A DNA stretch of 64,000 nt from Tagaea sp. (GTDB lineage Bacteria > Pseudomonadota > Alphaproteobacteria > CACIAM-22H2), in NCBI GenBank assembly GCA_965279525.1, contig CBDIIB010000005.1, positions 1,472,001 to 1,536,000 of the forward strand. The letters run 5' to 3'. Shown piece by piece: positions 17,966 to 46,900 of this stretch (positions are counted from its first letter, which is position 1; each line of letters opens with the position of its first letter). Under the pieces are notes generated by a model. It had not been told where the DNA came from, made no database searches, and saw only the letters and a program-made list of their open reading frames with translations. A program made the translations under genes and the position numbers.

Positions 17966-19228
17966 CTAGCGGCGCGGGACGCGGGCTTTCTTCGGTTTCG
18001 TGAACGTCGCGACCAGTTCGAGGTGGCCGGTCCACAGGAACTGGTCCACGGGGACCACGCGCGCCAGCGTATAGCCGCCATCCACCAGCACGCGCGCGTC
18101 GCGCGCGAAGCTCGCCGGATTGCACGACACCGCCACGACGACGGGCACCGACGAGGCGGCCAGATACGTCGCCTGTTCGCGCGCACCCTCGCGCGGCGGA
18201 TCGAAGATCGCCGCGTCGTATTCGTCGAGCTCTTCCACCAGCAGCGGCCGGCGTTCGAGATCGCGCGCCTCGCACGTCACGCGGCCCGCGCGGAAGCCGG
18301 CGCGGGCCCCGGCCTGCATGGCGGCACTGGCGGCGGCATCGCCCTCGACCGCGTGCACGCGACCGGTGAGCGGGAACGAGAACGTGCCGAGCCCGGCATA
18401 GAGATCGACGATGCGCTTGGCGCGGCCGACCGAGGCCGCGATCTCCGACGCGATCGCAAGCTCGGCGGGGCGCGCGGCCTGCAGGAAGGCGCCGGGTGGC
18501 GGCACCACTTCGACCGTGCCGAACGACACGCGCGGGCTTTCGTGCAGCACGACGATTTCGGGTTCCTCGCCCGTCTCGCGCCGCCAGGCGATGCGCACGA
18601 TGCCGTTGGCTGCGGCGAAGTCGGCGAGCGAGGCGCGCTTGCGCGCGTCGGGGCTGCGCCCGGTGAGCAAGAGGTCGATGCCGTTGTCGGCGGCCGTCAC
18701 GTGGATGTCGAAGGTTTCGGCGGGGCGCAGGAAATCGACAAGGAACGCGCGCAGTGCCGGCAGCAGCGACACGATCTTCGGCAGCAGCACGAGACACGAA
18801 TCGATGTCGACGAGTTCGGTGCTTCCCTCGGTGTGGAAGCCGAGCGTCACGCCGCCTTGCGTGCGCAGGGCCGAAAGCTCCGCGCGCCGGCGTGTACCAC
18901 CGGCGATGCGCAGCATCGGCGCGGGTGCGATGTCGAGACCGCGCGCGGACAGCGCCGCGACGAGCAGCCCCTGCTTCCACGCGACGTAAGAGGCTTCGGC
19001 CAGATGCTGCACGGCGCAGCCGCCGCACGCATGGAAATGCGGGCACGGCGGATCGACGCGGTCGGGCGCCTTGGTCAGGATCTCGACCGCGCGCGCGCGG
19101 TCCTTGCCGAAGCGCTGCGCGCGCACGCGCTCGCCGGGCAGGGCGCCGGGCACGAAAAGCGGGCCGTCGGCGACGCCGTCGCCGCTTGCGCCCAGCTTGC
19201 GGATTTCAAGTTCGACCGTTTCTTCCAT
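17966..19228 (-). CDS. rlmD: 23S rRNA m5U methyltransferase (RlmD/RumA family)
   Basis: TRAM-like N-terminus; CPHFHACGGC Fe-S motif; DLYAGLG, DPPREG and VSCNP. Confidence 0.85.
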   Translation of the reverse strand: MEETVELEIRKLGASGDGVADGPLFVPGALPGERVRAQRFGKDRARAVEILTKAPDRVDPPCPHFHACGGCAVQHLAEASYVAWKQGLLVAALSARGLDIAPAPMLRIAGGTRRRAELSALRTQGGVTLGFHTEGSTELVDIDSCLVLLPKIVSLLPALRAFLVDFLRPAETFDIHVTAADNGIDLLLTGRSPDARKRASLADFAAANGIVRIAWRRETGEEPEIVVLHESPRVSFGTVEVVPPPGAFLQAARPAELAIASEIAASVGRAKRIVDLYAGLGTFSFPLTGRVHAVEGDAAASAAMQAGARAGFRAGRVTCEARDLERRPLLVEELDEYDAAIFDPPREGAREQATYLAASSVPVVVAVSCNPASFARDARVLVDGGYTLARVVPVDQFLWTGHLELVATFTKPKKARVPRR

Positions 19229-19534
19229 GGGGGGCGAGGTGTAGCCGCGATCCGGGCGGCGGCGAAGCGAAACCTCTGCCGGCCCCGGGACTTGACAGGT
19301 TTTGCCCGGCGGCCCCGGTTTTGCCGCGACCCGACCGCGTCCCGGCCGGCCGAGGGCGGATTACCAAATGAAATCAATGGCCGACGCGATGGGATGGGAA
19401 AGGCGACTCGGCCCCCGACGCGAGGCCGCGACCCCGAGCCATTTCCCTCAACCTATTGAAATAACTTGGAATACCAAATTTCCCAAAATCCGATTGGCGG
19501 GGGGGGAGGGGGCGTGTTACGCAAAAACCGTCAG

Positions 19535-20510
19535 GAAAGCGAAGTCTTCATAGCCTTCGCGCCGTGTTGTCCGGGCGGGACATCAGGCTCCGACGTGCCG
19601 ATGGGGTGCCGGCGGTCTTCGCGAGGGGGCCGTCGGCACCACCTCGCCCCAAATCCACAAAAAATCTCCCAAAAATGAAGAGGCGCCAGGGGCGATCTTG
19701 CGATCGGCCGTTGTCCGGGCGGGACAAAGGGCTCCCTGACGCCTCGCGAGGACCGTCGAAGCGGGCGTGCACGCCGCGCATCCGACACCACCGACACCCC
19801 GCTCTCGCGGACCGCCGGCCGCCCCATGGCAGCCAAAAACCCGGGTCTTCCCTCGGGGGGCCTGCTTCGCACGTCCGGTCAGGCCCTGGTCCGCCCGATT
19901 CCGTCCGCGTCCCCCCGACGAGGGCTCCGGCGGCCACGCGCGGCCATCCAGAACCCGAACCCGAGACGTCCGACCCTTGCCTGCAAACGCGGTCCCAGAC
20001 CTGACCCGGGCCTCGCGCGAGCTTCGATCGACGGCGCTTTGAGCACCTGCCTTTCGTGCCTCGCAGCCGGTCCGCCGGTCGCGGGTTCCTGAACCCCTGT
20101 GGTCCGCCCCGCCGTCACCGCCGTACCCGCCGATCCCTTGCGGGACCCTCGTGACCCCGACCGTCGGCCTGGATCCCCGCGCCCGCGCGGATCCGTCGAC
20201 GCCGTCCCTTCCCGCTGCACCGGCCTGTCCCCAGGGGAACCGGCCGGCCGTCTTGAAGGGAATGGAGTTGCCACCTTCCGCCCGGCTTGCGCCGTGCTTC
20301 CGGCGACCGCTCCGGCGCAACGCCCCGACCCCGTCCTTCCCGCGCCGCCACCCTTTCGGGGCCGGCTCCTGCCAGTGGATCGCGTCCTAGCTACCGGACA
20401 CGCTGGAGAAGGATCGCTGCCGTCTTGTCGCGCCTCGCTTTCGCTTACCGGAAACGATGGTCTCAAAGCCGCGCATCGCCGCCAATCCCAATCGCCCGCG
20501 CACGGTCAGA
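19535..20510 (-). ncRNA. Candidate large structured non-coding RNA, unclassified; ends approximate
   Basis: No credible ORF; minus-strand GNRA-capped hairpins, G-U-containing helices, repeated modules and U-tracts near 19671 and 19535. Confidence 0.6.
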
Positions 20511-20539
20511 ATCTTGTTGATGGAATCCCGCGTTGATCA

Positions 20540-20575
20540 CAATCCACACACAGGCGATCCACAGGTCTGTCCACA
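20540..20575 (+). promoter_or_regulatory. Three tandem DnaA-box-like 9-mers
   Basis: CAATCCACA, CGATCCACA and CTGTCCACA in the same orientation. Confidence 0.35.
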
Positions 20576-20728
20576 GCGTTTTGTTCGCAGCCGCGGTAAG
20601 CTTCTCGCCCGACGCGCCAAACCCATCAATTGACGCGCCGGTATGCAGGGTCTAAATCCTTAAGCCTGCCGGGAAGAATTGCGAAGGCCGTCGAATACCG
20701 GCCACGCAATCAGGAAGACCGAGGGGCC

Positions 20729-21148
20729 ATGGCCGCAGAATCCAAGAGTTCCGCCAAACCGCATCCGCGACCGCTATCGCCGCACCTGCAGGTCTACCGC
20801 CCGCAGATGACGTCGATCCTGTCGATCACCCACCGCGCCACCGGCGTGGCGCTGGCGGTCGGCACGCTGATGCTGACGTGCTGGCTGGTCGCCGCGGCGA
20901 CGGGCGAAACGCCCTTCGCGCGCGTCAACGCGTTCCTAGGATCGGGCATCGGCATGGTGCTGCTGTTCGGCTGGTCGGTGGCGCTTTTTTATCACCTCGC
21001 CAACGGCATCCGGCACCTGTTCTGGGATGCGGGCTACGGCTTCGACCTGCCGACGATGGAAAAATCGGGCTGGGCCGTAATCGCGTTCACGGCCGCCGCG
21101 ACGATCCTCGCCTGGGCGCTGGGCCTTGCCGTGCTGGGAGGGCGCTAG
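20729..21148 (+). CDS. sdhC: Succinate dehydrogenase cytochrome b556 subunit
   Basis: RPLSPHLQVY, SITHRATG and YHLANGIRHLFWD. Confidence 0.97.
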   Translation: MAAESKSSAKPHPRPLSPHLQVYRPQMTSILSITHRATGVALAVGTLMLTCWLVAAATGETPFARVNAFLGSGIGMVLLFGWSVALFYHLANGIRHLFWDAGYGFDLPTMEKSGWAVIAFTAAATILAWALGLAVLGGR

Positions 21149-46824: not shown

Positions 46825-46900
46825 GGGGCCGTAGCTCAGCTGGGAGAGCGCCTCGTTCGCAATGAGGAGGTCGTCGGTTCGATCCCGATCGGCTCCACCA
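46825..46900 (+). tRNA. tRNA-Ala (anticodon CGC)
   Basis: 76 nt GGGGCCG...CGGCTCCACCA; anticodon arm CCTCG-TT-CGC-AA-TGAGG; GTTCGAT T-loop; G3-U70 pair; encoded CCA. Confidence 0.98.

Follow-up and report, generated by a model that had tools for sequence, protein, structure and literature searches.

A large structured minus-strand RNA, probably of an undescribed family, encoded divergently from sdhC in Tagaea and other Alphaproteobacteria

What is encoded in the long non-coding gap that separates rlmD from sdhC in the genome of Tagaea sp. (assembly GCA_965279525.1)? We addressed this question for a window of 64,000 nucleotides (contig CBDIIB010000005.1, positions 1,472,001 to 1,536,000; all coordinates are those of the window unless a contig is named), for which a sequence-only reading had proposed a large, modular, structured non-coding RNA (ncRNA), possibly of an undescribed class, on the minus strand of positions 19671-20510. 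Searches against Rfam, comparison of homologues, coding tests and minimum free energy (MFE) folding all support this proposal. Among relatives the helices are kept through compensatory changes, and the stretch bears no coding signal. We consider it likely that the gap contains a genuine gene for a structured ncRNA that is transcribed on its own and belongs to an undescribed family. The predicted transcript, its parts and the hairpins with GNRA loops are:

19671..20449, minus strand: primary transcript predicted for the ncRNA (about 779 nt), its ends placed by promoter alignment and terminator
20204..20432, minus strand: 5' third (model R1, alignment A4, 23 sequences)
19966..20203, minus strand: central domain, closed by GCGUCGACG/...GUCGGACGU (model R2, alignment A7)
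19746..19965, minus strand: 3' third, with a domain closed by CUCGGG/CCCGGG (sequence-only alignment A10)
19671..19745, minus strand: T1, a three-way-junction terminator module (direct reading, MFE fold, model R3)
20360-20351, minus strand: hairpin CCC-GAAA-GGG
20294-20283, minus strand: hairpin CGGC-GCAA-GCCG
20147-20132, minus strand: hairpin GGUCCC-GCAA-GGGAUC
19810-19799, minus strand: hairpin CCGC-GAGA-GCGG
19706-19693, minus strand: hairpin CGAUC-GCAA-GAUCG

Conserved structure of the minus strand

Direct reading of the minus strand returned all five GNRA hairpins that had been proposed. The helix of 12 bp between 19745-19734 and 19691-19680 pairs completely, includes one U-G pair and is present in the MFE fold; it is followed, as described before, by a U-run, UUCAUUUUU at 19679-19671. 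In 21-22 relatives this closing helix (helix 11) remains 100% paired; U-A is found in 13 of them and U-G in 8. Two domains that had been noticed for their similar closure by UCC(C)UUC and GAAGG(G)A correspond to helices 2 and 9 of the model structure, and both sides have changed in 6 of 11 and 11 of 17 of their pairs, respectively. Each of these two domains has CAAGACGGC nearby. The GC content across 19800-20499 is 0.70-0.74 and the GC skew of the plus strand -0.18 to -0.22; the minus strand is indeed rich in G (G 0.417, C 0.303 for 20449-19671). Its MFE of -463.8 kcal/mol corresponds to a z-score of -4.91 and was equalled by none of 20 dinucleotide shuffles. The plus-strand fold gave a z-score of +2.02, and all 20 shuffles were equally good. 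The unusual stability is thus strand-specific and confined to the minus strand.

Covariation was assessed after the addition of ten metagenome loci, which resulted in 23 non-redundant sequences once L071, L073 and L074 (at least 98% identical) had been dropped. An all-against-all helix scan on the MAFFT alignment was noisy and returned 19 helices with at least two covarying pairs in the minus sense and 7 in the plus sense, and RNAalifold recovered only 32 pairs from the 23-sequence MAFFT alignment. For this reason, the covariance models were trained on the 10 sequences of the close clade alone, and the other sequences were aligned with them. Four clades with 56-66% mutual identity were, in addition, aligned and folded separately. 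All four clades agree on the columns of 52 base pairs, and three of the four on those of another 61. Hairpins reside at matching places in the four clades while their sequences differ, conservation extends to the unpaired motifs CACUGGCAG, GACCAGGG and GUGCGAAGCAGG, and an insert of variable length lies between GCGAGG and CUCGC.

The first domain of the 5' third is closed by GAUCCUUCUCC/GGGAAGGA and holds the unpaired CACUGGCAG together with the GAAA hairpin. It is followed by a GGAGC...AACUCC hairpin and then by the second domain, which is closed by UCCCUUC/GAAGGGA. In alignment A4, 92.0% of the cells are paired versus 75.0% in shuffled controls, and 42 of 74 pairs change on both sides. When the partners were slid by 1-3 columns, pairing fell to 43-46% and the both-sided pairs to 11-14. 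Alignment A7 of the central domain, which includes the GCAA hairpin at 20147-20132 and the insert between GCGAGG and CUCGC, comprises the 22 of 23 sequences matched at E<=0.001. Here, 93.9% of the cells are paired (78.3% after shuffling) and 54 of 84 pairs change on both sides; the slid controls reached 28-47% paired cells and 9-20 both-sided pairs. The 3' third carries the conserved GACCAGGG and GUGCGAAGCAGG and further hairpins after the CUCGGG/CCCGGG domain. Its alignment A10 (22 sequences) was made by sequence only, with the structure taken from the close clade (clade A) alone. Even so, 87.7% of the cells are paired versus 82.6% in shuffles, a value reached by 0 of 500 shuffles, and 27 of 103 pairs change on both sides, which 3 of 500 shuffles reached. 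Slid controls gave 36-49% here and at most 57% over all alignments, and helices 2-4 of A10 are 87.5-99.5% paired.

The assignment to the minus strand is based on the ratio of G-U to A-C cells, the U-run and the folding z-scores. In modelled pairs, G-U and A-C cells stand at 158:31 in A4 and 195:16 in A7, and reading the opposite strand would cut pairing to 84.3% and 83.7%, respectively. A U-run 3' of T1 exists on the minus strand only. For the RNA bodies of other lineages, described further below, the sense z-score lies below the antisense value in 8 of 9 cases (-2.5 to -11.6).

High GC content by itself stabilises folds, and the stretch might in principle be a GC-rich spacer in which hairpins arise by chance, or a protein gene that has decayed or is unusual. 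Long open frames are present in all six frames of this DNA with 67-74% GC; the longest on the minus strand is rich in Arg, Gly and Ala, and several relatives share a frame of about 250-280 codons on this strand. However, substitutions relative to the window copy (L001) are spread evenly over the codon phases (35/39/42 for L005 and 89/86/79 for L011), whereas the rlmD control exhibits a coding pattern (8/3/17). Furthermore, the six closest relatives have 39 indels, none with a length divisible by three (0/7, 0/8, 0/8, 0/4, 0/6 and 0/6); all 39 comprise a single nucleotide, even at 89-91% identity. Codon-phase and indel analysis thus rule out a protein-coding gene in the recurrent frame, which is a by-product of GC content because it lacks codon-phase bias and is interrupted by 1-nt indels. 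Chance folding, in turn, is at odds with z-scores taken against dinucleotide shuffles, with frequent compensatory changes, with a locus conserved over an order and beyond, and with contigs from RNA libraries that are confined to the RNA stretch. We regard both versions of this explanation as scarcely credible.

Predicted ends of the transcript and neighbouring elements

Where does the RNA begin and end? The upstream region was studied by aligning 14 lineages over positions -150 to +25 (A11), and the following elements were assigned:

20515..20575, minus strand: DnaA-box-like cluster upstream of the RNA promoter (14-lineage alignment)
20575-20567, minus strand: DnaA-box-like site TGTGGACAG
20563-20555, minus strand: DnaA-box-like site TGTGGATCG
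20548-20540, minus strand: DnaA-box-like site TGTGGATTG
20541-20538, minus strand: invariant TGTG
20523-20515, minus strand: inverted, weaker DnaA-box-like site CCATCAACA
20450..20485, minus strand: promoter-like block with TTGGCG (20485-20480), 17-nt spacer and GACCAT (20462-20457), from the cross-lineage alignment
20630..20658, plus strand: TTGACG-N17-TAAATC, a promoter-like site that precedes the sdhC ATG by about 70 nt
19229-20728: non-coding gap between rlmD and sdhC
17966-19228, minus strand: rlmD
20729, plus strand: ATG of sdhC, which is divergent from rlmD
19440..19640, minus strand: T2 block, consisting of a hairpin, a T1 paralogue and a conserved tail

The consensus of A11 starts with the tandem arrangement CTGTGGATAA-N-TCTGTGGATAA, followed by the invariant TGTG and then by an inverted TTATCAACAG-like site. 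Further downstream lie a -35-like element containing ATTG, a -10-like hexamer and an invariant GG, and the layout of boxes and promoter is alike in other families. The CTGTGGATAA 9-mer matches the DnaA-box consensus, from which three of the sites in the window deviate by two mismatches each. DnaA may thus bind here, as predicted from the resemblance of the sites. A genome-wide search for clusters of at least three boxes with no more than one mismatch found none anywhere. In two genomes of the genus, G006 and G008, the boxes, the promoter block, the RNA body and T1 are absent together while the sdhC promoter-like site and T2 are kept; because of this joint loss we assign the boxes to the RNA gene.

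A weak candidate promoter for the RNA is located at about 20485-20457, with the G at about 20449 as the predicted transcript start. In AT-richer relatives, the corresponding arrangement is TTGCAA or TTGCAC, 17 nt, GACTAT, AAAGAT or CAGTAT, 7 nt and GGTACGC. Of the limits 19671 and 20510 originally proposed for the RNA, the 3' limit holds and the 5' limit is probably about 60 nt too far upstream. A 5' end nearer to 20449 is indicated because 20510-20450 aligns with the promoter-like block elsewhere and the contigs from RNA samples begin at 20427-20416.

The sdhC promoter-like site is context only and lies outside the RNA. In its minus-strand reading, the GTTTAGACC...GTCAAC block is found again before sdhC in further genera and families. 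It is a putative sdhC promoter; a consensus scan missed it because the sixth base of its -10 element is C. The RNA had been placed between sdhC and rlmD. This is correct for the window, and the conserved linkage is that with sdhC, which neighbours the element in 19 of the first 20 loci, and not with rlmD, which does so in only 9 of 20. The stretch encoding the large RNA is present as a single copy in the source genome. The gap had also been noted as the sole one of kilobase size in the window; a crude GC3 filter leaves 18 uncovered stretches of at least 350 nt there because this filter misses real genes.

The boxes also raised the idea of a chromosomal origin. Alphaproteobacterial origins usually reside beside hemE. 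On contig C5, the skew minimum lies at about 1.105 Mb, the minimum of gene orientation at about 1.03 Mb, hemE at 1.231 Mb and dnaA at 0.763 Mb, and the RNA locus at 1.4916 Mb. GC skew, gene orientation and the positions of the two genes argue against an origin, which the locus probably is not; this exclusion is only moderately strong because the skew is weak.

At the 3' end, T1 is closed by a helix of 11-12 bp and contains the hairpin UUGUCC-CGCCC-GGACAA and the GCAA hairpin; the U-run at 19679-19671 comes last. Model R3, built from 13 sequences of five genera, scores 97.4 bits at the T1 copy in the window. Across lineages (alignment A9), 99.5% of the cells are paired and 7 of 16 pairs change on both sides. 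With intrinsic terminators T1 shares, in every lineage, a GC-rich helix of 11-12 bp directly before a U-run, but in T1 this helix closes a three-way junction with a near-invariant GUCC-CGCCC-GGAC hairpin. A consensus terminator scan missed T1 because it is not a simple stem-loop. Its conservation exceeds what termination needs, which suggests a second role, for example in protection or recognition of the 3' end.

Beside the large RNA, the gap holds a second conserved module downstream, at about 19640-19440. This T2 block is composed of the hairpin GGUGGUGCCG...CGCCGGCACC, a paralogue of the T1 module (19596-19528) and the tail GUAACAC...CGCCAA...AUUUUGGG. All 20 congeneric genomes keep it, the two without the large RNA included, and it also occurs in other genera. 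Unlike T1 and intrinsic terminators, it has no conserved U-run at its 3' side. T2 probably forms a unit of its own outside the abundant RNA. The possibility that it serves as leader of the downstream gene was rejected, as the next gene varies among clades and is often convergent. Individual genomes differ around the T modules: about 70 nt past T1, the locus L014 (genome G020) carries a GGGCYCAAGGCUUUUUC-like unit of about 20 nt in three tandem copies, about 730 nt are inserted between T1 and T2 in G001, and G178 (L145/L155) has two strong T modules about 870 nt apart with a third, weak one adjacent.

Distribution of the family and presence in RNA libraries

How far does the RNA extend beyond the source genome? 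The genus Tagaea was represented by 21 genomes, i.e., the source and 20 relatives. A DNA search with the stretch gave a match in each of the 20 congeneric genomes and in none of 20 from outside the genus. The body of about 850 nt is present in 18 of these 20 relatives, G006 and G008 retaining only the downstream block. Model R1 with strict filters matched 0 of 29 genomes from 14 other genera, and blastn between the bodies of different genera returned almost nothing. Several of the 14 genera nevertheless have at least 1 kb without codon periodicity upstream of sdhC. These stretches share a plan whose sense is divergent from sdhC: DnaA-box-like sites, a block TTCTATCAACAG... and an AT-rich -35-like element ATTG..., a start of the GGUACGCG type, a G-rich body (G 0.38-0.43) of 370-800 nt and, at the 3' end, GAGGCGUCAGG...GUCCCGCCCGGAC...CCUGACGCCUC with a U-run. 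The bodies are full of GNRA- or UUCG-capped hairpins and partly duplicated internally.

The T1 model proved the most far-reaching probe. Of 49 genomes of the order, 36 have a single R3 match each, and these represent 14 of 15 genera; misses within the order concerned one genus (0/9), G006 and G008. Of the 18 T1-positive genomes outside Tagaea, 13 have T1 divergent from sdhC and 0.9-1.5 kb upstream of it, three have it at a distance of 2-7 kb and two on another contig. When one genome from each of 150 other alphaproteobacterial families was searched, R3 gave ten matches with 57.7-25.6 bits, the weakest of which may be due to chance, and sdhC is found inside the 3-kb locus in 6 of 11 class-level loci. 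With filters switched off, R1 and R2 produced weak matches that are collinear and on the correct strand (21.6 and 12.1 bits for L107, 17.2 bits for L110 and 13.2 bits for L100). Judged by the shared gene plan, the family appears to span several alphaproteobacterial families. Within the bodies, GACGG occurs 69 times versus 30.9 expected (2.2-fold) and is present in 14 of 14 RNAs, and words with GCAA loops are enriched about threefold. The body seems to grow by duplication of modules. Within the bodies L148, L149 and L150, which stem from other families, structured units of about 100-210 nt are duplicated in tandem.

Public sequencing runs provide a further line of evidence. Part of the stretch is held by 23 runs, 14 of which are recorded as RNA and originate from about 12 studies of varied habitats. 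Each of the 14 holds 0.21-0.27 of the sampled words. Contigs were mapped for three RNA runs from three studies. They cover 19706-20422 in X5, where one contig of 717 nt lies wholly inside, 19706-20416 in X9, which comprises only 16 million letters, and 19680-20427 in X12, where letters of the sequencing adapter follow directly after 20427. The adapter marks a fragment end and does not decide the strand. The contigs reach none of the promoter, T2, sdhC and rlmD, missing cover being no evidence of absence, while one probable DNA run spans the stretch from end to end. The contigs fit a discrete RNA of about 720-750 nt or slightly more. The habitats of runs X5-X18 comprise bioreactor, plant, sediment, mine drainage, biofilm and freshwater. 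The near-constant word share of 0.21-0.27 could reflect an abundant RNA of widespread Tagaea-like bacteria or a common reagent or laboratory contaminant.

A number of points count against the interpretation as a structured RNA family with its own promoter and upstream boxes. Alignments A4, A7 and A9 were fitted to the model structure, which favours pairing, and close kinship within clades lets the shuffle control overstate significance. In A10, helices 1, 7, 9 and 10 are only 66-76% paired, and 66 of 500 shuffles matched the count of further pair types. The body of L147 exhibits no strand asymmetry in its z-scores. Homology of the bodies between genera rests on synteny, conserved ends and weak collinear matches (21.6-12.1 bits). 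The contigs from RNA runs give neither strand nor exact ends nor level, and carry-over of DNA into the libraries is possible. A consensus scan found no sigma-70-like site at the promoter-like block, which is weak by consensus, and the boxes of the source genome are each two positions off the consensus. With regard to the fitted alignments, the slid controls and the result obtained with the sequence-only alignment argue that the covariation signal is real.

Known RNAs and possible roles

Does the RNA belong to any known class? With Rfam 15 at gathering thresholds, the only match in the window is a tRNA (46825-46897), and at E<=10 the search of 19100-20850 returned none within 19671-20510. Two chance-level matches far below gathering, to the L31-Actinobacteria leader (E 0.94) and the COG3860 RNA (E 3.4), fall at 19279-19337 upstream of rlmD. 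Twelve loci of other genera and families likewise gave no credible match. This covers the models for OLE, GOLLD, ROOL, HEARO, raiA, introns, RNase P, tmRNA, 6S and alphaproteobacterial small RNAs. The genome's RNase P RNA (RF00010; 293.7 bits, C5:36880-37269) and 6S RNA (RF00013; 57.2 bits, C2:286641-286798) are located elsewhere, and so is the sole match to alpha-tmRNA (RF01849), a 24.5-bit fragment at the contig end (C5:1-45); the tmRNA gene was probably split by the assembly. Full-text and passage searches for the genus, for ncRNAs linked to sdhC or DnaA boxes, for large alphaproteobacterial RNAs and for the motifs, with supplementary lists outside their scope, found no description of the RNA, and the passages of PMC11109978 that they covered mention no such motif.

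A strongly diverged member or remnant of a known catalytic or housekeeping RNA class, for instance a group II intron lacking an ORF, a relative of RNase P RNA or a precursor of tmRNA, would share the size, the GNRA loops and the multi-domain layout of large ribozymes, and the GAAA hairpin at 20366-20340 with its 1-2 nt 3' bulge loosely recalls intron domain V. Domain V is a hairpin of about 34 nt with a paired AGC triad and a 2-nt bulge, and introns of this type have, in addition, a domain VI branch site and flanking exons. The nearest hairpin in the window comprises 28 nt, its AGC is not paired as domain V would need, and no intron model matched at E<=10. Moreover, neither the RNA stretch nor the 12 loci of other lineages match any Rfam family at E<=10, RNase P RNA, 6S RNA and the tmRNA fragment sit elsewhere, the gene has its own promoter-like block and terminator without flanking exons, and a body of about 370-800 nt with internal duplications is unlike a ribozyme core. 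A known RNA in disguise is therefore very unlikely.

The closest parallels are found among the large ornate bacterial ncRNAs OLE, GOLLD and ROOL, which have been the subject of cryo-electron microscopy (cryo-EM) work (PMC12286853). Common features are a length of 500-800 nt, multiple domains rich in GNRA loops, covarying helices, conserved unpaired motifs and stand-alone genes, and the biochemical function is obscure in all of them. In contrast to these RNAs, to which it has no match in sequence or structure, the window RNA is hosted by Alphaproteobacteria and not by Firmicutes, Lactobacillales or phages, is not associated with phage, tRNA or OLE-partner genes, and combines a fast-evolving body and variable module number with conserved ends, a conserved promoter and DnaA-box-like sites upstream. 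RNAs of the CsrB/RsmZ and 6S types are stable and seen in RNA samples, as is the window RNA. Protein sponges display many copies of their partner's binding motif in loops. The window RNA is, however, far larger and mostly paired instead of looped, its motif is GACGG and not the GGA of CsrA targets, and the source genome has a separate 6S gene. A hairpin-module number that varies by lineage, a strong terminator and the recurring GACGG are sponge-like traits, and the RNA may act as a sponge.

DnaA-controlled promoters and box clusters are exemplified by dnaA, nrdAB, mioC, datA and DARS in E. coli and by Cori in Caulobacter. The locus resembles them in having several consensus-like 9-mers, tandem and inverted, at fixed spacing just upstream of the promoter. 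It differs in that the product is a large structured RNA and not a protein gene and in that the locus is probably not the origin; DnaA binding is predicted from sequence. In our working model, the gene would be transcribed away from sdhCDAB, from a promoter just downstream of four DnaA-box-like sites, and DnaA at these boxes would set transcription of the RNA. T1 would act as an intrinsic terminator that ends the transcript and might also protect or mark its 3' end. Members of the family share boxes, a promoter-like block, a 5' end of the GGUAMGCG type, a quickly evolving body of tandem GNRA- or UUCG-capped modules, and T1. The mature RNA may act in trans as a stable scaffold, either as a multivalent platform for protein binding or as a self-assembling RNA built from modules. 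We propose such a trans-acting scaffold or sponge tentatively, as a possibility that falls somewhat short of being probable. RNA-only multimers have been found for ROOL, GOLLD and OLE. A bolder version, which we consider rather doubtful, sees a new large ornate RNA class that is housekeeping-like in many Alphaproteobacteria, with synthesis coupled to DnaA and GNRA modules that build a multimer or ribonucleoprotein linking DnaA status to central metabolism at the sdh locus.

Alternatively, the locus may act mainly in cis: the boxes would titrate or recycle DnaA, as datA and DARS do in E. coli, and transcription or an R-loop would tune the boxes or the sdhCDAB promoter, the RNA product being secondary. 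This would be in line with four box-like sites whose spacing is fixed and conserved over 14 lineages and which are lost jointly with the RNA gene, with a position next to sdhC in most lineages and at about 260 kb from hemE, and with an RNA consisting of 42% G, given that G-rich transcripts favour R-loops. A purely cis role would leave unexplained the selection for about 250 covarying base pairs and for the near-invariant 3' module, as well as the discrete piece of about 720-750 nt in RNA libraries, and the link to sdhC is looser in G051, G058 and G059 (2-7 kb). We consider a mainly cis-acting locus improbable; cis and trans roles are not exclusive and can coexist.

The candidate would join a small group: large structured bacterial RNAs without assigned function are few, and each of them is instructive. 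Comparative evidence for it is strong, it is represented in RNA libraries of several habitats, and its gene plan can be traced from family to family. We know of no large RNA of this kind that is typical of Alphaproteobacteria, and our literature searches found none. The DnaA-box-like sites provide a concrete regulatory lead that is directly testable. In this family, the ends and the promoter of a long structured RNA have been preserved despite quick turnover of its modular body, and it is because of this rapid turnover that sequence and Rfam searches miss the family. This suggests that searches anchored in synteny, here upstream of sdhC, may uncover further such RNAs.

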